Of a stretch of DNA of 32,000 nt, positions 933 to 30,826 are shown piece by piece. A program made the translations under genes and the position numbers. Position 1 is the stretch's first letter; every line of letters begins with the position of its first letter. This DNA comes from Mycolicibacterium smegmatis (GTDB lineage: Bacteria; Actinomycetota; Actinomycetes; Mycobacteriales; Mycobacteriaceae), in assembly GCF_001457595.1 (NCBI RefSeq), contig NZ_LN831039.1:5370001-5402000 (forward strand). Direction: 5' to 3'. The notes under the pieces are model-generated. The model did no database searches, was not told the origin of the DNA, and saw nothing but the letters and a program-made list of their open reading frames with translations.

Positions 933-2324
933 CTAGTGCCGGTAACCGCCCTCGGACAGGAACCCCAGCAGGTCGTGCCTGGTCAGCACACCGACGGGCT
1001 TGCCGTCCTCGACCACCATCACGGCGTCGGATTCACGAAGGGTCTTGGCGGCCGTGCTGACCAGTTCACCGGCGCCGATCAGCGGCAGCGGCGGGCTCAT
1101 GTGCTCGGCGACCGCGTCGGCCAGCTTGGCGCGGCCCTCGAACACCGCCGAGAGCAGTTCGCGCTCGGAGACGCTGCCTGCCACCTCGCCTGCCATCACG
1201 GGCGGCTCCGCGCCGACGACGGGCATCTGGGAGACGCCGTACTCGCGCAGGATCCCGATCGCGTCGCGCACGGTTTCCGACGGATGCGTGTGCACCAGGT
1301 CGGGCAGTGCACCCGACTTGCCGCGCAACACGTCACCGACGGTCTTCTCGACGCTGCCGTCGAGGCGGGTGCGCAGGAAACCGTAGGACGACATCCACGC
1401 GTCGTTGAAAATCTTTGACAGATAACCACGTCCACCGTCGGGCAGCAGCACCACGACCACGGCGTCGGGCCCGGCCTTGCGGGCCACCTCGATGGCGGCG
1501 ACGACGGCCATGCCGCACGATCCGCCGACCAGCAGGGCCTCTTCACGTGCGAGTCGCCGGGTCATCTCGAACGAGTCGGCGTCGGACACCGCGATGATCT
1601 CGTCGGGGACCGAAGGATCGTAGGCCGTGGGCCAGAAGTCCTCGCCGACACCTTCGACGAGGTAGGGCCGGCCCGTGCCGCCCGAGTACACCGAGCCCTC
1701 GGGATCGGCGCCGATGACCTTGACCTTGCCGCCCGAGACCTCCTTGAGGTAGCGGCCGGTGCCGGTGATGGTCCCGCCGGTGCCCACACCCGCGACGAAG
1801 TGTGTGATCTTGCCTTCGGTGTCGGCCCAGATCTCGGGGCCGGTGGTCTCATAGTGGCTCTCCGGGCCCATCTGGTTGGAGTACTGGTCGGGCTTCCAGG
1901 CGCCCTCGATCTCGGTGACCAGGCGGTTGGAGACGCTGTAGTAGCTGTCCGGATGGTCCGGCGGAACCGCCGTCGGGCACACCACGACCTCGGCGCCGTA
2001 CGCGCGCAGGACATTCCGCTTGTCCTCGCTGACCTTGTCAGGGCAGACGAAGACGCACTTGTAGCCGCGCTGCTGGGCCACCAGGGCCAGGCCGACGCCG
2101 GTGTTGCCCGAGGTGGGTTCGACGATGGTGCCGCCCGGTTTGAGCTCACCGCTGACCTCGGCGGCCTCGATCATCTTGAGCGCGATGCGGTCCTTGGAGC
2201 TGCCGCCGGGGTTGAGGTACTCGATTTTCGCCGCCACCAGGCCTGCCCCTTCGGGGACCACCGAGTTCAGCTGGACCAGCGGGGTGTTACCGATGAGCTC
2301 ACTGATGTGCCTGGCTATGCGCAT
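933..2324 (-). CDS. cbs: Cystathionine beta-synthase (PLP enzyme with C-terminal CBS-domain pair)
   Basis: 463-aa ORF. It has PLP-lysine motif GGSSKDR and the TSGNTG loop. The C-terminal ~120 aa look like a tandem CBS pair (..VRDAIGILREYGVSQMPVV.. and ..VMVVEDGKPVGVLTRHDLL..). Confidence 0.93.
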   Translation of the reverse strand: MRIARHISELIGNTPLVQLNSVVPEGAGLVAAKIEYLNPGGSSKDRIALKMIEAAEVSGELKPGGTIVEPTSGNTGVGLALVAQQRGYKCVFVCPDKVSEDKRNVLRAYGAEVVVCPTAVPPDHPDSYYSVSNRLVTEIEGAWKPDQYSNQMGPESHYETTGPEIWADTEGKITHFVAGVGTGGTITGTGRYLKEVSGGKVKVIGADPEGSVYSGGTGRPYLVEGVGEDFWPTAYDPSVPDEIIAVSDADSFEMTRRLAREEALLVGGSCGMAVVAAIEVARKAGPDAVVVVLLPDGGRGYLSKIFNDAWMSSYGFLRTRLDGSVEKTVGDVLRGKSGALPDLVHTHPSETVRDAIGILREYGVSQMPVVGAEPPVMAGEVAGSVSERELLSAVFEGRAKLADAVAEHMSPPLPLIGAGELVSTAAKTLRESDAVMVVEDGKPVGVLTRHDLLGFLSEGGYRH

Positions 2325-22782: not shown

Positions 22783-24411
22783 CTAGAGGTGGATCACCTC
22801 GTAGGCGCCCTCGGCGTGGCGGGCCCGAATGGTCTTCTTGTCGTACTTGCCGACGCTGGTGCGCGGCACCTGGTCGACGAAGGCCCAGCGTTCGGGCAGC
22901 CACCACCGAACCACCTTGTCGGCGAGGAACTCACGTAGCTCCCCGGGATCGGCCGAGGCGCCCTCGTGCAGCACCACCACCGCCAGCGGACGCTCCTGCC
23001 AACGCTCGTCGGGCACGCCGACGACGGCGGCCTCCAGCACCGCGGGGTGTCCGATGAGGTGGTTCTCGAGTTCGACCGACGAGATCCATTCGCCGCCGGA
23101 CTTGATGACGTCTTTGGCCCGGTCGGTCAGCGTCACGTAGCCGAGTTCGTCGATGACGCCGACGTCACCCGTGCGCAGCCAGCCCGAGTCGAACTTCTCG
23201 GCGTCACGGCCCAGGTAGTAGCCGCCCGTGATCCACGGGCCGCGCACCTCGAGTTCACCGACGGCCTTGCCGTCGCTCGGCAGCGGGTTGCCGGCGTCGT
23301 CGACGATGCGCACCTCGACGCCGCACATGGGCCTGCCCTGCGTGATACGCATCGCCCAGTGCCGCTCGTCGGTGACACCGGGCAGCGGTTTGGCCACCGT
23401 CGCCAGCGGTGACGTCTCGGTCATGCCCCAAGCCTGCTGGATGTAGACGTCGTGGCGCTCCTGGAAGGCCTGCATCAGCGACAACGGCACCGCCGACCCG
23501 CCGCACGCCACCAGGCGCAGCGACGAGATGTCGTGTCCCGGCGACTTTTCCAGGCAGTTCAGTACGTCGTTCCAGATCGTGGGCACGGCTCCGGCCAGCG
23601 TCGGGCGCTGCGTCTCGATCAGTTCGATCAGCGACGCGCCGTCGAGGAACCGGTCGGGCATCACCAGGCCGGCGCCTGCCATCAGCGCGGCGTACGGCAG
23701 GCCCCACGCGTTGGCGTGGAACATCGGCACGATCGGCAGCACCACGTCACCGCAGCTGACGTCCAGTGCGTTGGCGGTGCACGTGTTCAACGAGTGCAGG
23801 TAACTCGACCGGTGGCTGTAGACAACGCCTTTCGGGTTTCCTGTGGTGCCGCTGGTGTAACACATTGCGGCGGCGGAGTTCTCGTCGATGTCGGGCCAGT
23901 CGAACCGGGTGGGCCGCCCGGCCATGGCCTCGTCGTAGCGCAGCACCGTGCGGTCCGCCCCGCGCAGCGGCTCCAGATCGCCGTCCCCGACGACGATCAC
24001 GGTGTGCACGCTGTCGACCAGCGGCAGCACGGGCGCCAGCAGCGGGATCAGTGACGAGTCGGTGATGATCACGCGGTCCTCGGCCTCACGGGCGATGAAC
24101 CCGATCTGCTCGGGCGACAGCCGGATGTTGAGCGTGTGCAGCACGGCCCCCATGGCGGGGATCGCGAGGTAGGCGGTGAGATGCTCGGTGTTGTTCCACA
24201 TGAAGGTGCCGACACGCTCGTCGCCGGTGATGCCGACCTCGCGCAGCAGGTGCGCCAACTGGGCCGCCCGTTCCCCCACCTCGCGGTAGGTCGTGGTGCG
24301 GAAGCCGCCCTGGCCGGTGGCCATGGTGACGGTCTGATCTCCGTTGACGCCGCACGCATGGCGCAGAATCGCGGTGATCGTCAACGGCCATTGCTGCATG
24401 GTGCTGTCCAC
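22783..24411 (-). CDS. Medium/long-chain fatty-acid--CoA ligase (FadD14-like, Thermus LC-FACS type)
   Basis: AMP-binding motif YTSGTTGNPKGV. The N-terminus DSTMQQWPLTI resembles the ..STMMDEELN.. start of characterised homologues. The C-terminal region has GEWISS. The product is 542 aa. Confidence 0.9.
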   Translation of the reverse strand: MDSTMQQWPLTITAILRHACGVNGDQTVTMATGQGGFRTTTYREVGERAAQLAHLLREVGITGDERVGTFMWNNTEHLTAYLAIPAMGAVLHTLNIRLSPEQIGFIAREAEDRVIITDSSLIPLLAPVLPLVDSVHTVIVVGDGDLEPLRGADRTVLRYDEAMAGRPTRFDWPDIDENSAAAMCYTSGTTGNPKGVVYSHRSSYLHSLNTCTANALDVSCGDVVLPIVPMFHANAWGLPYAALMAGAGLVMPDRFLDGASLIELIETQRPTLAGAVPTIWNDVLNCLEKSPGHDISSLRLVACGGSAVPLSLMQAFQERHDVYIQQAWGMTETSPLATVAKPLPGVTDERHWAMRITQGRPMCGVEVRIVDDAGNPLPSDGKAVGELEVRGPWITGGYYLGRDAEKFDSGWLRTGDVGVIDELGYVTLTDRAKDVIKSGGEWISSVELENHLIGHPAVLEAAVVGVPDERWQERPLAVVVLHEGASADPGELREFLADKVVRWWLPERWAFVDQVPRTSVGKYDKKTIRARHAEGAYEVIHL

Positions 24412-24541: not shown

Positions 24542-24853
24542 ATGCGCGTGAAATGGTCCTTGATGGCGGTCGCTGCGGCTGCGATCGGGGTGGTGAGCGC
24601 ACCCGCGGGTCTCGCGTCGGCCGAGGAGACCGCCCAGGAGACCATCAACCGACTGCAGTCCCAGGGCTACACCGTGCAGATCGACCGCATCGGCACCGCA
24701 CCGATGGACAAATGCGTGGTCACCAACGTCCGTAACCCGCAGCAGGTCCGTCAATGGCTGCCATACGTGGGTCCCGGCCTCAACACCGACAGCGTCCTGA
24801 TCAACACCGTCACCAGTCAGACGGTGTCGGTGTCGCTGAACTGCCAGCGCTGA
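24542..24853 (+). CDS. Small Sec-exported protein A1 (unrecognised family, conserved Cys pair), paralogue of 29023-29337
   Basis: GAAGAGG SD lies 9 nt before ATG 24542. The signal peptide is MRVKWSLMAVAAAAIGVVSAPAGLASA|EE. The mature ~76-aa product shares ETI.RL...GY.V.IDR.G.AP...C.VT.VRNPQ...VSLNC.R with A2. Confidence 0.75.
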   Translation: MRVKWSLMAVAAAAIGVVSAPAGLASAEETAQETINRLQSQGYTVQIDRIGTAPMDKCVVTNVRNPQQVRQWLPYVGPGLNTDSVLINTVTSQTVSVSLNCQR

Positions 24854-24873
24854 GCACCGGGTAGCCGCTCAGC
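24849..24873. terminator. Stem-loop filling the 20-bp gap between convergent A1 and B1
   Basis: GCTGAGC (24849-24855, includes the A1 TGA) pairs with GCTCAGC (24867-24873, abuts the B1 stop). The stem is 7 bp and the loop 11 nt. Confidence 0.45.
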
Positions 24874-25134
24874 TCACCACCAACGCCACCAGGGGCGCAC
24901 GTAGCCCCAACCAGGGCCCCAACCAGGGTGGCCCCAGCCACCGTGGCGGAAGCCGTATCCGTGGAAGCCGCCGCCGTGAAAACCTCCGTGATAGCCGGCC
25001 TGTGCGACATGGGCCGCCACCGGCTCCGGGCCCGTCGCCTCGGTTTGCGCTGAGGCCGCGGGGGCGAGCCCGATGCTGACGACCGCGCCTGCGGCCGCGA
25101 TTGCCGGGACGACGCGCCTGAAGGCTGTTCGCAT
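24874..25134 (-). CDS. Secreted Gly/His/Trp-rich peptide B1
   Basis: AAGGAG lies 6 nt before ATG 25134. The signal peptide is MRTAFRRVVPAIAAAGAVVSIGLAPAASA|Q. The mature product is ..AGYHGGFHGGGFHGYGFRHGGWGHPGWGPGWGYVRPWWRWW. The track start 25218 adds a non-signal N-terminus that I reject. Confidence 0.6.
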   Translation of the reverse strand: MRTAFRRVVPAIAAAGAVVSIGLAPAASAQTEATGPEPVAAHVAQAGYHGGFHGGGFHGYGFRHGGWGHPGWGPGWGYVRPWWRWW

Positions 25135-25260
25135 GGCCATCTCCTTCGAAGATGTTGCTGTTCTTGCCCTTTCAGGATTGCGCGATCTCGCCTTCCCGGC
25201 GTTGGGGCTGGCCTCCAATCCGCACCCCCGGTAGCTTCAATCAGCGTCCCGGTCCAGATC

Positions 25261-26787
25261 TCAGTGCGCGAACAGCAGTTTGACGGCCTGCCGGTCGATG
25301 GCGCCCTTGGCTGTATGCGGCAGTGATTCGACGATGTCGAGGCGCGCGGGCACCTCGTACGGCGCGAGTCCGGTGCGGCACTGCGCCAGGATGTCGTCGG
25401 CCGACACGTGGGCGGCCGCGGGCACCACCGCTGCCCCGACCTGCTCGCCGTAGGTGGCGTCGGGAATCGCGAACACCACGGCCTCGAACACCCCGTCACA
25501 GCCGGTCAGGACACCTTCGACGTGCTCGGGCGAGATCTTCTCGCCGCCGCGGTTGATGATGTTCTTGATCCGGCCGGTGAGCTGCAGGTTGCCGTCGGCG
25601 TCGAGCGCGCCGAGATCTCCTGTGCGGAACCAACCGTCGGTGAAGGCCTGCGCGGTGTTCTCCGGATCGGCGAGGTATCCCCGCACGACGGCCGGCCCGC
25701 TCACCCACACCTCGCCTGTCTCGGCAGGTGTGCACTCGCCGCCGTCGGACCGCACGACCCGAAACCGCGCGGCACCGGATGCGGGGCCCACCGACATACG
25801 GGGATCGTGAGTGCGCACGCGCCTGCTCGCGGCCTGGTGGGTGGTCTCGGTCATGCCGTACGCCTCGAGCATCGGCGCGCCGAACCGCCGCTCGGCCGCC
25901 TCGGCGGTGGCCGGGTCGAGCGGCGCGCTGCAGCTGCGCACGAACCGCAGTGGTGGGTGCTCCTCGTCAGGGCGTTGCAGCAGGATCTGGTGGATTGTCG
26001 GGACGGCGGTGAACCACGTCGCGTCCGCATCGCGCATGTCGGCCCAGAACGTGTGGGCCGAGAAGCGCCCGTGCGCGGGAAGCAGCACCTTCCCGCCGCC
26101 GGCCAGGGTCGACAGCAGCACGGCCACCAGCCCGTGACCGTGGAAGAACGGCATCACGGCGACGGTGGCGTCACCGTCGCCGAGTTCGTAGGCCGCACAG
26201 ATCCCGTGCACCGACGCCGCGATGTTGGCGTGTGTCCACGGCACCATCTTGGCCCGGCCTGTGGTGCCCGACGTGAACAGGATCAACGCGTCGTCGGGTC
26301 CCAGGCCCAGGTCGACGGCCGGCCGCACCGTGGGCTCGACGGTGGCGCCGCGCGTGGGCTCGACGGTGGCCCGGCTCGCGGTGACGCGGACCCGGTGGGT
26401 GCCGAGCGCATGTTCGCACGGTCCGGTGAGCACGGCCCGCGCACCGAGACGTGCCAGCCGGTCGGTCATCTCGGCGTCGGCGAGTGCGGGGTCCAGTGGC
26501 GCGACAACCGCTCCGATGCGCGCGGCCGCGAGCAGCGCGACAACGAATTCCGCGGTGTTGACGTCCACGACCGCGATCACCTCCCCGCGTCGCAGCCCGT
26601 CGGCGGTCAGGCCCGCTGCCACGTCGTCGGCCCATCGGCCGAGCGTCGCGTACGTCACCGCAATCCGCTGCTGGGTCACCACGAGCGCGGGCGCGTCGGG
26701 GCGGGTGCGGACGTGATGATCGAGGACGTCGAACAGTCCCGACAGCAAAGTCGCGGGAGGTGTCGCTGCAGTTCCCATGAACCGCAT
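25261..26787 (-). CDS. AMP-forming acyl-CoA ligase (FadD7-like; candidate oxalate--CoA ligase)
   Basis: Motifs are FTSGTTGRAKMV, ..WFRTGDLG.. and GGEKISP. The product is ~508 aa. It is divergent from oxc, as fadD7 and oxcA are in M. tuberculosis by my recollection. Confidence 0.88.
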   Translation of the reverse strand: MRFMGTAATPPATLLSGLFDVLDHHVRTRPDAPALVVTQQRIAVTYATLGRWADDVAAGLTADGLRRGEVIAVVDVNTAEFVVALLAAARIGAVVAPLDPALADAEMTDRLARLGARAVLTGPCEHALGTHRVRVTASRATVEPTRGATVEPTVRPAVDLGLGPDDALILFTSGTTGRAKMVPWTHANIAASVHGICAAYELGDGDATVAVMPFFHGHGLVAVLLSTLAGGGKVLLPAHGRFSAHTFWADMRDADATWFTAVPTIHQILLQRPDEEHPPLRFVRSCSAPLDPATAEAAERRFGAPMLEAYGMTETTHQAASRRVRTHDPRMSVGPASGAARFRVVRSDGGECTPAETGEVWVSGPAVVRGYLADPENTAQAFTDGWFRTGDLGALDADGNLQLTGRIKNIINRGGEKISPEHVEGVLTGCDGVFEAVVFAIPDATYGEQVGAAVVPAAAHVSADDILAQCRTGLAPYEVPARLDIVESLPHTAKGAIDRQAVKLLFAH

Positions 26788-26815
26788 GCTATGGCCGCGA
26801 TATCGCCCTCAGCAG

Positions 26816-26848
26816 CCCCCTGACCTGGTTTTTCCAGCTGGCAGGGGG
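26816..26848. promoter_or_regulatory. Composite inverted repeat in the ligase/oxc divergent promoter
   Basis: CCCCCTG..CTGG-ttttt-CCAG..CAGGGGG. A 7-bp outer stem and a 4-bp inner stem surround a T5 loop. Confidence 0.3.
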
Positions 26849-26929
26849 GTCATGGTGCCGAAGTCCGGACGTCGCGTTGGACGCCAGCGGTGAAGACGTG
26901 GGCGCCCGCACGGACAAGCATGTTGTCCT

Positions 26930-28660
26930 ATGAACACCGCACCGCTGATGACCGAGTCGGTCCCGGGGACCTCCCCCGTCACCGACGGCGCCCACGTGCT
27001 GGTCGATGCGCTCAAGCTCAACGGGGTCGAGACACTTTACGGCGTGGTCGGCATCCCGATCACCGACGTGGCGCGGGTGGCACAGGCACAAGGCCTGCGC
27101 TACATCGGCTTCCGGCACGAGAGCGACGCCGGGCATGCCGCCGCCGCAGCGGGGTTCCTGACGAAGAAGCCGGGTTTCTGCCTCACGGTCTCCGCGCCCG
27201 GGTTCCTCAACGGCCTGGTCGCGTTGGCCAATGCCACCACGAATTGCTTTCCTATGGTGCAGATCTCCGGGTCCAGCGACCGACACATCGTCGACCTGCA
27301 GCGCGGTGACTACGAGGAGATGGATCAGCTCGCCGCAGCGAAACCTTTCGCCAAGGCGGCCTTTCGCGTCAACCGCGCCGCCGACATCGGTCTGGCGGTC
27401 GCCAGGGCCATCCGCACCGCGTCGTCCGGCCGGCCCGGCGGCGTGTACCTCGACATCCCGGCCGCGGTCCTGGGTGAGGTGATCGACGCCGGTGCCGCAG
27501 CAGCGTCGCTGCGCACCGTCGTCGACGCCGCACCCGAGCAGTTGCCGTCGCCAAGGGCCGTCGACCGTGCGGTCGCGCTGCTCGCAGCGGCCCGACGACC
27601 TCTCGTGGTGCTCGGCAAGGGCGCGGCATATGCGCAGGCGGACAAAACGATTCGCAACTTCCTCGAATCGACGGGCCTGCCGTTCCTGCCGATGTCGATG
27701 GCCAAGGGCCTGCTGCCGGACACGCATCCGCAGTCGGTGGCCTCGGCCCGGTCGATGACGCTGCGCGACGCCGACGTGGTCCTGCTGGTCGGTGCCCGCT
27801 TGAATTGGCTTCTGGGGCACGGCGAACCGCCGCAGTTCAGCCGCGACGTCAAGTTCATCCAGGTCGACATCGATCCGGGTGAACTGGACAGCAACGCGCC
27901 GATCGCCGCACCGCTGGTAGGCGACATAGGCTCGGTGATCGAGGCGCTCGCCGAGCGCGCCCAGTTCATCGACGCCCCGGCACCGTGGCGCGAGCAACTG
28001 GCCGAACGCAAGGCCCGCAACGCCGAGTCCATGGCGAAGCGGCTGGCCGCCGACCCGCGGCCCATGCGCTTCCACGGTGCGCTGCGGGCCATCCGTGATG
28101 TGCTGCGCGACCGTCCCGACGTCTACGTCGTCAACGAGGGTGCCAACGCACTCGACCTGGCACGCAACGTGATCGACATGGCGGTGCCGCGGCACCGGCT
28201 CGACAGCGGCACGTGGGGTGTCATGGGCGTCGGCATGGGGTACGCGATCGCGGCCGCGGTCGAGGGCAGTGGACCGGTCGTCGCGATCGAAGGCGACAGC
28301 GCGTTCGGGTTCAGCGCCATGGAGCTCGAGACGATCTGCCGCTACCGCCTGCCCGTGGTGGTCGTCGTGCTCAACAACGGCGGCGTGTACCGCGGCGACG
28401 GGCACAACCCGGCGTCTGACGACCCGTCACCTACCACGCTGATGCCTGCGGCGCGTCACGACCGGCTGATCGAGGCCTTCGGCGGCACAGGTCATCACGT
28501 CACCACACCCGCCGAACTCGGTGCGGCCCTGACCGAGGCGCTGGCCTCCGGCGGGCCGGCCCTGATCGACTGCGTGATCGATCCGGCCGACGGCACCGAG
28601 AGCGGTCACCTGACGCAATTGAACCCGGCGGTCGTGGGCCACCATCCCGCCACCAATTGA
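26930..28660 (+). CDS. oxc: Oxalyl-CoA decarboxylase (ThDP-dependent)
   Basis: Strong resemblance to Oxc/YfdU in GIPITDVAR..FRHESDAGHAAAAAGFLTKKPGFCLTVSAPGFLNG..NCFPMVQISGSSDRHIVDLQRGDYEEMDQ. The ThDP motif is GDSAFGFSAMELETICRYRLPVVVVVLNNGG. Confidence 0.93.
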   Translation: MNTAPLMTESVPGTSPVTDGAHVLVDALKLNGVETLYGVVGIPITDVARVAQAQGLRYIGFRHESDAGHAAAAAGFLTKKPGFCLTVSAPGFLNGLVALANATTNCFPMVQISGSSDRHIVDLQRGDYEEMDQLAAAKPFAKAAFRVNRAADIGLAVARAIRTASSGRPGGVYLDIPAAVLGEVIDAGAAAASLRTVVDAAPEQLPSPRAVDRAVALLAAARRPLVVLGKGAAYAQADKTIRNFLESTGLPFLPMSMAKGLLPDTHPQSVASARSMTLRDADVVLLVGARLNWLLGHGEPPQFSRDVKFIQVDIDPGELDSNAPIAAPLVGDIGSVIEALAERAQFIDAPAPWREQLAERKARNAESMAKRLAADPRPMRFHGALRAIRDVLRDRPDVYVVNEGANALDLARNVIDMAVPRHRLDSGTWGVMGVGMGYAIAAAVEGSGPVVAIEGDSAFGFSAMELETICRYRLPVVVVVLNNGGVYRGDGHNPASDDPSPTTLMPAARHDRLIEAFGGTGHHVTTPAELGAALTEALASGGPALIDCVIDPADGTESGHLTQLNPAVVGHHPATN

Positions 28661-28694
28661 TGTGTCGCATCGAAGATCACAAAGGAGTATTGCC

Positions 28695-29018
28695 ATGCGA
28701 ATCCGGTCTCTCACACCATTTTTGGCGGTCGGCGCCGGCGCGGTCGCGATCGCACTCGCGCCCGTCGCGTCCGCGGCGCCCACGGATGACTCCGTGGTGC
28801 CCAGTTGCACCAGCATCGGACCTGGTACCGAATGTCAGTCACCCGGCAACGTCGAACTCAACGCCTCGATCCCGCCGGACTTCGAATCGCAGTATCCGGC
28901 ATTCGGCTTGTTCGGGCTTGGTCCCGTCGGCGGATTCGATCACGGCGGTCACGGATTCGCCGGTGGTGCACACGGTTTCGGCGGTGGCGGTATGCACGGT
29001 GGTGGTGGGCACCGCTGA
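28695..29018 (+). CDS. Secreted protein B2 with Cys pair and Gly/His-rich tail
   Basis: AAGGAG lies 7 nt before ATG 28695, 34 bp after the oxc stop. The signal peptide is MRIRSLTPFLAVGAGAVAIALAPVASA|A. The mature product is ..SCTSIGPGTECQSPGNVELN..GGFDHGGHGFAGGAHGFGGGGMHGGGGHR. Confidence 0.65.
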   Translation: MRIRSLTPFLAVGAGAVAIALAPVASAAPTDDSVVPSCTSIGPGTECQSPGNVELNASIPPDFESQYPAFGLFGLGPVGGFDHGGHGFAGGAHGFGGGGMHGGGGHR

Positions 29019-29036
29019 CTGCTCATCTCGAGCAGT
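29018..29036. terminator. Hairpin across the 4-bp gap between convergent B2 and A2
   Basis: ACTGCTC-atctc-GAGCAGT has a 7-bp stem. It overlaps the last base of the B2 TGA (29016-29018) and contains the A2 TCA (29023-29025). Confidence 0.35.
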
Positions 29037-29337
29037 TCAGTGACACCGTGATGGAGCGACGCGTCACCACCGGGATGTAGTCGATGTCCTTCTTTCCGTG
29101 CTTGCCGAACCGCTCGACACGGACGAGTTGGGTCTGTGTCTGTGGGTTGCGCACGCTGGTGACGATGCATTCTCCCAGCGGCGCGCTTCCCACGCGGTCG
29201 ATGTTCACGTAATAGCCCTCGGCTTCGAGTCGGCCGATCGTGTCGATCGCCGTTTCGGCCGAAGCCGCCCCGGCAGGTGTCACGATGGCCGCCAGAGCCG
29301 CCCCCGACGCGGCCAACATGACGAGCGATGTTCGCAT
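29023..29337 (-). CDS. Small Sec-exported protein A2 (paralogue of A1)
   Basis: GGAAGAAAGG precedes ATG 29337. The signal peptide is MRTSLVMLAASGAALAAIVTPAGAASA|E. The core and both Cys are conserved with A1. Confidence 0.75.
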   Translation of the reverse strand: MRTSLVMLAASGAALAAIVTPAGAASAETAIDTIGRLEAEGYYVNIDRVGSAPLGECIVTSVRNPQTQTQLVRVERFGKHGKKDIDYIPVVTRRSITVSLNCSR

Positions 29338-29426: not shown

Positions 29427-30155
29427 TCACACAACACCGCCGTTGGCGTAGATCACCTGCCCGTTGACCCACCGTGCCGGGCCGGCGAGGAACGCGACGA
29501 TCTCGGCGATGTCGGCGGGTTCGCCGAGGCGTTCCAGCGGCGGCGCGGCCTTGGCGCGGTCGATGACCTCCTGAGGCTTGCCCTCGAAGTACAGCGGGGT
29601 GGCCGTGGGTCCCGGCGCGACGGCATTGACCGTGACGTCGCGTCCGCGCATCTCCTTGGCGAGGATCAGCGTCATGGCGTCGACGGCGCCCTTGGTGGCG
29701 GCGTAGGCCGTGTAGGTGGGCGCCGCGATCTTGGTGACCGACGTCGAGAAGTTGATGATGGCCCCGCCCGCGCGGACACGGCGCGCGGCCTGCTGGCTGA
29801 CGGCGAACGTACCGCGCACGTTGGTGCGCAACATACGGTCGAGGTCGGCCAGATCGAGTTCGGCGAGTGGCGCGAGCGTCATGATGCCCGCGGTGTTCAC
29901 CACGACGTCGACGCCGCCGAACTCCGATTCCACCTCATCGAAGAGCGCGGCGACCTGCTGCTCGTCGGCCACGTCGGCGGTCACGACCGTCGCGGCCCCG
30001 CCCAGGGCCGTGATCTCGTCGGCGGTCTGCTGTGCACGGTCGCGGTTGCCGGCATAGTGCACGGCCACAGCCATCCCCGCACGTGCCAACCGCACTGCGA
30101 CGTCATGGCCGATACCGCCGGATGCTCCGGTGATGATGGCTACGCGCTGGGTCAT
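29427..30155 (-). CDS. Short-chain dehydrogenase/reductase (SDR)
   Basis: GGAGAA SD precedes ATG 30155, giving MTQRVAIITGASGGIG. The catalytic motif is YAATKGA, and NTAG is present. The track start 30200 lies in the AT-rich operator region. Confidence 0.9.
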   Translation of the reverse strand: MTQRVAIITGASGGIGHDVAVRLARAGMAVAVHYAGNRDRAQQTADEITALGGAATVVTADVADEQQVAALFDEVESEFGGVDVVVNTAGIMTLAPLAELDLADLDRMLRTNVRGTFAVSQQAARRVRAGGAIINFSTSVTKIAAPTYTAYAATKGAVDAMTLILAKEMRGRDVTVNAVAPGPTATPLYFEGKPQEVIDRAKAAPPLERLGEPADIAEIVAFLAGPARWVNGQVIYANGGVV

Positions 30156-30235: not shown

Positions 30236-30826
30236 TTGACCACCAACCCGCGTCGCGGCCGCGGCCGCAGGCCCGCGCAGGACGTGCGCCGCGATGTCCT
30301 CGCAGCCGTGGCCGATCTGCTGTTCACGGAGGGCATGGCGGGATTCACCATCGACAAGGTCGCCGCGCGCTCTGGAGTCAGCAAGGTGACGATCTACAAA
30401 TGGTGGCCGTCGAAGGGCGCACTGGCGCTCGACGGATATTTCGCAAAGGTCGAGCCGCGGTTGGCATTTCCCGACACCGGCGACATCGAGGCCGATCTGC
30501 GGTCGCAGTTGCACGCGTTCCTGCGCGTCATCCGCGACACCCCGGCAGGTACTGTGATCGCCGAGCTCATCGGAGGCGCCCAGACCGATCCGGAGCTCAA
30601 AGCCGCGTTCATGCAACGGTATTCGGGGCCTCGGCGCAGCTTCGCGGTGGCGGCGATGCGGCGTGCACAAGAGCGTGGTCAGCTTGCCGCGCATGTCGAC
30701 CCGGAAACCGTGATCGACCAGCTGTGGGGCGCGTGCTACAACCGCCTGCTGGTTCCCGATCAGCCGTTGAGCGAACAGTTCGTGGACGCCTTGCTGGACA
30801 ACCTGTTCCGCGGCATCGGGGCCTGA
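30236..30826 (+). CDS. TetR family transcriptional regulator
   Basis: TTG start lies 5-6 nt after GGAGG. The HTH is FTIDKVAARSGVSKVTIYKWWPSKGAL. The product is 196 aa. Confidence 0.88.
   Translation: MTTNPRRGRGRRPAQDVRRDVLAAVADLLFTEGMAGFTIDKVAARSGVSKVTIYKWWPSKGALALDGYFAKVEPRLAFPDTGDIEADLRSQLHAFLRVIRDTPAGTVIAELIGGAQTDPELKAAFMQRYSGPRRSFAVAAMRRAQERGQLAAHVDPETVIDQLWGACYNRLLVPDQPLSEQFVDALLDNLFRGIGA

Follow-up and report, generated by a model that had tools for sequence, protein, structure and literature searches.

Is a group of genes that reads as its own mirror image held together by function, or is its symmetry a by-product of the way in which the genes came to lie side by side? The question is raised by a locus in a 32,000-nucleotide stretch of DNA from Mycolicibacterium smegmatis (contig NZ_LN831039.1, positions 5,370,001 to 5,402,000; the whole stretch is called the window in the following). 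Here oxc, the gene for oxalyl-CoA decarboxylase, and an acyl-CoA ligase gene are divergently transcribed and bracketed by four small open reading frames (ORFs), A1 and B1 on one side, B2 and A2 on the other. A preliminary description had read this layout as a cassette of two paralogous pairs of exported proteins, A and B, functionally tied to each other and perhaps to oxalate catabolism. The comparison with about 90 related loci suggests another answer: the locus is quite probably a composite of three independent layers rather than a single cassette that works, or was duplicated, as a unit.

The six ORFs all have the coordinates and strands originally assigned to them. The left flank of the slot is A1 (24542..24853, plus strand), identified by look-up as MSMEG_5292 and encoding a 103-amino-acid (aa) precursor of a presumably secreted alpha+beta protein of about 75 aa with two conserved cysteines. 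It converges on B1 (24874..25134, minus strand), the gene for an 86-aa, probably exported Gly/His/Trp-rich protein, which lies downstream of and on the same strand as the ligase gene MSMEI_5153 (25261..26787, minus strand). A divergent intergenic region of 142 bp (26788..26929), the putative control region, separates the ligase gene from oxc (MSMEI_5154; 26930..28660, plus strand). The latter is followed by B2 (MSMEI_5155; 28695..29018, plus strand), whose likewise presumably exported 107-aa product has the motif C-x8-C-QSPGNV and a Gly/His tail with GGGGHR at its end. The right flank is A2 (UniProt A0R307; 29023..29337, minus strand), a 104-aa paralogue of A1 found by BLASTP and look-up. The stop codons of A1 and B1 are 20 bp apart and those of B2 and A2 4 bp; 126 bp (25135..25260, minus strand) lie between the ligase gene and B1, and 34 bp between oxc and B2. 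The ATG codons of B1 and B2 are each preceded by the Shine-Dalgarno (SD) sequence AAGGAG, 6–7 nucleotides (nt) upstream, so that gaps and SDs are also as first described. In agreement with the source organism, a protein of M. smegmatis matches B2 with 100 % identity.

The identity of the two enzymes is well defined by profiles. The oxc product matches TIGR03254 over its full length (958 bits against an equivalog cut-off of 739), as well as NF006721, and all three Pfam domains TPP_enzyme_N, TPP_enzyme_M and TPP_enzyme_C are present. The ligase is a member of the FadD7 family with a full-length match to NF004511 (753 bits, cut-off 650) and AMP-binding and AMP-binding_C domains. An exact look-up of MSMEI_5153 returned the labels 'FadD7' and 'peroxisomal-coenzyme A synthetase'. 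The second label and the divergent pairing with oxc suggest that oxalate is probably the substrate of the ligase, which would then be an oxalate--CoA ligase.

The first of the three layers is the A pair. A1 and A2 share 47 of 105 residues (45 % identity, E = 1e-25 in BLASTP), which confirms the paralogy noticed by eye, and both cysteines are conserved in at least 90 % of 74 family members. Close homologues of A1 number 506, nearly all from Mycolicibacterium or Mycobacterium. A profile search of 1.84 billion representatives returned 399 clusters (50 % identity, E at most 1e-3), nearly all of about 100 aa, and the family also includes B1MKB4 of M. abscessus. Two distant members, P0248 and P0353, are encoded on plasmids of M. 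vanbaalenii; the family is thus not limited to the chromosomal slot.

In the main survey, 80 species-level loci centred on A1-like genes were compared by mapping nine window proteins with tblastn. In 38 of them a convergent A paralogue lies no more than 250 bp from the A1-like gene, 23 of the 38 having it within 19 bp, and in a further 15 it is 0.3–5.7 kb away. The resulting total of 53 loci agrees with the earlier view that A1 and A2 are an old inverted duplicate which has been maintained. The conserved partner of A1 is A2, typically 9–19 bp away, together with an upstream ligase of the MSMEG_5291 type (52 of 80 loci). In the window this ligase, the orthologue of MSMEG_5291, is the divergent neighbour of A1 (22783..24411, minus strand; 696 bits with NF004837, long-chain-fatty-acid--CoA ligase). 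The M. fortuitum-group loci all show a gap of 9 bp and an A2 orthologue of 65–74 % identity as partner, and the 16 loci with a 9-bp gap all have the same junction.

Neither a B gene nor an oxalate gene is a regular neighbour of A. A B-like match of any kind was obtained in five of the 80 loci, leaving 75 without one; these counts were taken from tblastn, as a heuristic detector of B-like ORFs had missed the copies in L002, L004 and L006. The ligase and oxc occur in three loci (L001, L002 and L004) and are missing from the other 77. Therefore the proposed pairing of A with B and the linkage of A to oxc or the ligase do not hold across genomes, and a binding or immunity pair of A and B is without comparative support, a B-like match being found in 5 and a convergent A paralogue in 53 of the 80 loci.

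The second layer is the content of the slot, which varies between species. The interval between the convergent A genes is empty in some of them, and it holds SDR-SDR-TetR genes in about 11 loci, with an additional alpha/beta hydrolase in L065 (SDR-TetR-abhydrolase). A DUF4344 metallopeptidase is found in L042. In M. wolinskyi (L007:6334-10655) the oxalate genes are replaced by a GntR(FCD)-MFS-DHDPS family-ROK kinase cluster that resembles a module for sugar-acid catabolism, perhaps one of the sialic-acid type. The slot cargo, including that of L006 described next, was verified by Pfam or tblastn. The slot of L006 contains the last 83 codons of oxc followed by B2 and a Dps gene. The full block of B1, ligase, oxc and B2 between an A pair was seen only in M. 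smegmatis, M. goodii and the close relative represented by L094 and L095, and outside the window the identical nine-gene layout was seen only in M. goodii and L094/L095. L001, L002 and L004 show the order A1, B1-like gene, ligase, oxc and a gamma-glutamyltransferase-like ORF (the last assigned by eye), without B2 and without A2. A neighbour-joining tree built from the flanking acyl-CoA ligase places M. smegmatis plus M. goodii as sister to M. wolinskyi, whose cargo differs, and L006 within the M. fortuitum-group clade of empty slots; directly convergent A pairs without cargo (A>A>.<A or A>.<A) are already present in distant or outgroup lineages.

The third layer consists of B1 and B2, which are not demonstrably a second paralogous pair as had been proposed. 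In BLASTP they align in the signal peptide only (E = 0.075), and a profile-profile comparison aligned nothing beyond columns 1–29, again the signal peptide; the mature regions show no homology. Hallmarks of the B2 family are the conserved module C-x6-8-C-QSPGNV, a segment PP..Y and a G/H tail that closes with GGGGHR; B1 has none of them and a Trp-rich tail of its own (..RPWWRWW) that is not found in B2. Since B1 and B2 are not paralogues, A alone was duplicated and not a unit of A, B and enzyme. In addition, DNA-level inverted repeats in the region are confined to the coding sequences of A1 and A2. The two-fold mirror symmetry is therefore real with respect to gene order and strand, and as a symmetry of homologous genes it applies to the A pair and not to the B pair.

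The distribution of the two B families is also different. A search of 5.8 billion proteins yielded just three clusters for B1, and their members belong to M. smegmatis, M. goodii or close relatives; L001, L002 and L004 add divergent B1-like ORFs downstream of the ligase. In L001 (L001:6353-6592, Mycobacterium sp. 852013-50091) an in-frame stop in the B1-like gene removes the Trp-rich tail, which is kept in L002 and L004. B2 has 15 homologues and belongs to a small mycobacterial family, which elsewhere stands beside Dps or in unrelated contexts. In three loci (L085:6001-6815, L087:763-1565 and L006:7399-8232) a B2-family gene lies directly upstream of a gene for a 163-aa Dps-like protein with a ferritin fold; in L085 and L087, which carry the distant B2 homologues P0275 and P0276, the B2 gene overlaps the Dps-like start by 4 nt. 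This arrangement, seen in three loci of which two are closely related, suggests that the putatively exported His-rich B2 protein may be co-expressed with the cytoplasmic iron-storage and DNA-protection protein Dps. Six distant metagenomic relatives of B2 (L088-L093) have neither Dps nor oxc nearby and no informative neighbours. One metagenomic contig (L090:2054-3382) carries four tandem copies of the Cys-x-Cys-QSPGNV motif of the B2 family. P0278, a 143-aa chimeric ORF on an ENA contig, combines a B2-like N-terminus with Dps-like C-terminal residues (…AAWMLKSDNRKI) and looks like adjacent B2 and Dps genes fused by deletion or frameshift. Altogether, neither B family is consistently linked to A, and B1 alone is consistently linked to one enzyme.

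All four small ORFs behave like protein-coding genes. The ratios of nonsynonymous to synonymous substitutions (dN/dS) against the M. goodii orthologues are 0.10 for A1, 0.13 for B1, 0.12 for B2 and 0.19 for A2 at dS values of 0.35–0.81, within the range of the neighbouring enzyme genes, and because of this purifying selection they are taken as real genes. As read from the sequence, the N-terminus of each product has the features of a Sec-type signal peptide: a basic n-region, then a hydrophobic core, then an A-x-A site. Signal peptides and selection together support the earlier proposal that the four ORFs encode exported proteins. Also in agreement with it, no recognised family was found: scans of A1, A2, B1 and B2 against Pfam and NCBIfam gave sub-threshold noise only (EAL, Porin_4, keratin head and VanC) and no curated family for A, B1 or B2. 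The automatic label of MSMEI_5155 (B2) is 'keratin associated protein'.

Taken together, these results are best explained by the following scheme. A1 and A2 would be an old convergent paralogue pair that stands beside MSMEG_5291 across much of Mycolicibacterium, and the gap between them would act as a tolerant landing or exchange site whose cargo in the M. smegmatis/M. goodii lineage is the divergent oxalate-degradation pair. Between convergent genes, insertions or exchanges would disturb no promoter. Each enzyme gene would be trailed on its own strand by an unrelated small gene for a Sec-exported, low-complexity Gly/His-rich protein, B1 as a lineage-restricted companion of the ligase and B2 as a member of its separate family. 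The inverted duplication of A would then predate the presence of the cassette. The mirror symmetry arises because a divergent pair sits inside a convergent pair and is a by-product. The slot may have been filled by insertion when empty or emptied by loss when full, and within this scheme exchange may proceed by homologous recombination through the flanks.

A mobile element or genomic island was also considered as an explanation and was rejected: among the ORFs there is no integrase, transposase or insertion sequence (IS) element, the borders of the slot show no tRNA and no direct repeats, and the GC content is uniform (0.66–0.71).

Several points weigh against three separate layers. B1 follows the ligase in every species in which the ligase lies beside A1 (M. 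smegmatis, M. goodii, L094/L095, L001, L002 and L004); this part of the preliminary description holds, and there may be a real functional link between ligase and B1. All comparison loci were recruited via homology to A1, and fadD7-oxc loci elsewhere, e.g. in slow-growing mycobacteria, lie outside the survey. The oxc remnant of L006 inside an empty-slot clade shows that loss of cargo happens; some empty slots could thus be secondary and the oxalate cassette older than assumed. A literature search found no expression data for the small genes. Finally, the deletions in L094 and L095, discussed below, were seen in read assemblies made automatically from two runs, whose accession numbers are adjacent and which may stem from one strain.

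The remnant in L006 is also the starting point of the alternative that survives best, although it is rather unlikely. A cassette A1-[B1-ligase|oxc-...-B2-Dps]-A2 would have been ancestral to the fast-growing clade comprising M. smegmatis and the M. fortuitum group, and the other slots would have resulted from repeated deletion or replacement in a decaying region. The position of the L006 slot, with an oxc 3' remnant, B2 and Dps between A1 and A2 and nested in an empty-slot clade, fits this history, as do the ongoing deletions within ligase and oxc in L094/L095 and the A1-B1-ligase-oxc order kept by L001, L002 and L004. However, directly convergent A pairs exist already in more distant lineages, and the one junction shared by all 16 loci with a 9-bp gap fits a state inherited once better than a series of separate clean deletions. 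The presence of four or more unrelated cargos in the slot likewise speaks against it, and even if it were true, the function of A would not be tied to oxalate.

A bolder combination is quite unlikely in our view, namely that A1 and A2 form a dedicated site of cargo exchange in fast-growing mycobacteria and that B1 and B2 are, in addition, metal-sequestering accessories of the envelope. For the first part, the hairpin at the A 3' end (…VSLNC-stop) or flanking homology could promote the swapping of modules between strains, e.g. during distributive conjugal transfer. For the second part, B1 could have been recruited to oxalate and B2 to Dps modules, buffering cations freed as metal oxalates are consumed.

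The functional module of the preliminary description, in which the four exported proteins and the oxalate enzymes arose by inverted duplication and act together in metal or oxalate handling or as a secreted peptide with its binder or immunity protein, is very unlikely. It can draw on a layout that M. smegmatis, M. goodii and L094/L095 have in common, with all the small genes under purifying selection, on SDs and same-strand placement suggesting co-expression of ligase with B1 and of oxc with B2, on the occurrence of B1 beside the ligase in L001, L002 and L004, and on the His-rich tails, which as read from the sequence could bind metals. The preliminary description had itself named the gene neighbourhoods of A and B homologues as a possible ground for refutation, and these largely refute the model: A homologues stand without B and oxc neighbours in 75–77 of 80 loci, the relatives of B2 are found with Dps (L006, L085 and L087) or in other contexts (L088-L093), and L001, L002 and L004 are without B2 and A2 after oxc. 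B1 and B2 are, moreover, not homologous. A further argument against a tie to oxalate catabolism comes from two Logan assemblies, L094 (3305-5880; SRR23593233) and L095 (3306-5880; SRR23593240), whose A1 is 94 % identical to that of the window and which keep the nine-gene order. Their ligase lacks residues 320-414 and their oxc residues 413-576, and A1, B1, B2 and A2 are intact ORFs. Here ligase and oxc look like pseudogenes with conserved small genes on either side; if the deletions are not artefacts of assembly, the small genes would outlive the oxalate enzymes.

That the small ORFs, notably the low-complexity B1 and B2, are chance reading frames in GC-rich DNA is hardly credible: B1 is missing from the original mc2 155 annotation and annotated in newer records only (e.g. 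AWT56132), B2 was added only with the MSMEI annotation, the GC content at third codon positions (0.77 and 0.69) is below that of the neighbours (0.86–0.91) and the family scans gave no match, yet dN/dS is 0.13 and 0.12 at a dS of about 0.8 against M. goodii, signal peptides, SDs and C-terminal motifs are all conserved, and orthologues with 35–60 % identity exist in other species.

How the small genes are transcribed can be judged in part from the DNA. Ligase and B1, and likewise oxc and B2, may be co-transcribed. In the DNA alignment to M. goodii the 45 nt ahead of the B1 start (window 25135-25180, minus strand) are near-invariant, the dS of the flanking genes being 0.5–0.8; this element may be a B1-specific promoter or a 5' untranslated region element, and it makes expression of B1 together with the ligase, or immediately downstream of it, probable. 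No stable terminator-like fold was found in the ligase-B1 intergenic region (z = -0.26), no sigma-70 consensus match in the 142-bp divergent region and no Rfam family in the whole window. Stem-loops do span both convergent stop gaps, as had been claimed, and are unremarkable compared to shuffled sequences: the A1/B1 hairpin (24847..24878) has a 7-bp stem with z = -0.5, and the B2/A2 hairpin (29013..29043) about 12 imperfect pairs with -21.5 kcal/mol and z = -2.0. Neither has a U tract, and a scan of the region for promoter and terminator patterns, both convergent gaps included, found zero sites. In L005 (6270-6360) and other loci with a 9-bp gap, a long hairpin is formed by the inverted A 3' ends (in L005 with -37.8 kcal/mol and z = -1.8), which might serve as a bidirectional terminator and, more speculatively, may favour rearrangement.

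To the right of A2 lie an SDR oxidoreductase gene (29427..30155, minus strand), assigned by profile and locus comparison and found within the A-A slot in other species, and a gene for the TetR-family regulator paired with it (30236..30826, plus strand; TetR_N and TetR_C_11 domains of Pfam in the M. goodii orthologue). At the other end of the window, a 463-aa ORF (933-2324, minus strand) resembles cystathionine beta-synthase by eye; beside it, positions 200-600 have a GC content of 0.72 and Gly/Ala/Arg-rich reading frames, and the gene at these positions probably runs off the window. In the literature, a search for MSMEG_5292-5297 and for MSMEI_5152, 5155 and 5156 found no paper. Only MSMEG_5291 turns up, named as acyl-CoA synthase in a thiol-proteomics table (PMC5430705).

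As a functional mirror cassette the locus fails, so that little follows from it for oxalate metabolism, and the points that remain are of modest value and settle no long-standing question. The gap between the convergent A genes is a clean case of a variable slot with at least five metabolic cargos, which is useful for studies on genome plasticity in fast-growing mycobacteria. The A family, restricted to Mycobacteriaceae with about 400 clusters, reaching M. abscessus and typically present as convergent or tandem paralogues, is a candidate family of envelope proteins worth a structure and a knockout. The translational coupling of B2 and Dps in some loci hints at a role of the His-rich exported proteins connected with metals or oxidative stress. 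A, B1 and B2 are uncharacterised but ordinary families of small secreted proteins at a variable locus. Our best guess is that the A proteins, as a pair of paralogues, are ligand-binding domains of the envelope and that divalent metals are bound by the B tails; as a working guess, B1 and B2 might be exported peptides that bind metals or have surface activity.

The A proteins invite comparison with PASTA domains, which form C-terminal repeats in PknB and PBP2x. Source labels of the family are inconsistent (PASTA, DUF732 and DUF4333), and several members are labelled 'PASTA domain-containing protein' by UniRef. An AlphaFold2 model built on the 74-sequence alignment has a predicted local distance difference test (pLDDT) value of about 80 in the mature domain, an earlier one on a shallow alignment having been poor (pLDDT 57). 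It contains a helix (31-40) that packs on a sheet of three strands (43-51, 59-75 and 85-101). The conserved C58 and C101 lie where the long hairpin opens, a position that would suit a disulfide staple. Like PASTA domains, the A proteins are small alpha+beta units located outside the cytoplasm, about 70 residues long, in which three strands come after a single helix. Differences are the stand-alone nature of the A proteins, which are not attached to a kinase or penicillin-binding protein, and their two conserved cysteines. Neither A1 and A2 nor any of the 74 family members gave a Pfam match to PASTA (PF03793) at E up to 1, and none of the 74 matched DUF732 at this threshold. Foldseek with the A model found nothing significant in the PDB, the PASTA structures 1rp5, 7o61 and 5e10 being listed with E values of 1.5–2.4 and a TM-score of about 0.3, and no PDB sequence was matched below E = 0.1 by the profiles of the A and B2 families. 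PepSY_2 (PF13670) is comparable in size, secreted location and helix-plus-sheet architecture. It is matched weakly by 13 of the 74 members (best E = 0.0016, all below the gathering score) and by neither A1 nor A2; a remote relatedness is possible. We therefore regard the A family as a small, secreted and uncharacterised alpha+beta domain that resembles PASTA or PepSY at most.

Glycine/histidine-rich secreted peptides are known from the plant GRP family (PF07172) and the shepherin-type peptides. Like these, B1 and B2 consist of a signal peptide and a low-complexity tail of Gly, His and aromatic residues, and one relative of B2 matches the Pfam GRP family at E = 8e-5; the resemblance is compositional only, and B2 has its own Cys-x-Cys-QSPGNV module. 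The enzyme pair corresponds to the divergent oxcA-fadD7 pair of M. tuberculosis, which we take to be Rv0118c/Rv0119, adjacent in the H37Rv annotation. The oxc gene and the FadD7-type ligase gene of the window are also divergent, likewise in L001, L002 and L004. In M. smegmatis and M. goodii, however, both enzyme genes have a small gene for an exported Gly/His-rich protein behind them and the block lies between A paralogues; we know of no such small genes annotated at the M. tuberculosis locus. A literature search on oxcA/fadD7 found nothing relevant to the small genes of the window. The slot as a whole may be compared with genomic islets and integration hotspots. Although its flanks are inverted paralogues and its borders have no integrase, tRNA, IS element or direct repeats, it shares with these systems the conserved flanks, here A1 and A2, and a variable, unrelated cargo of at least five kinds in addition to the empty state.

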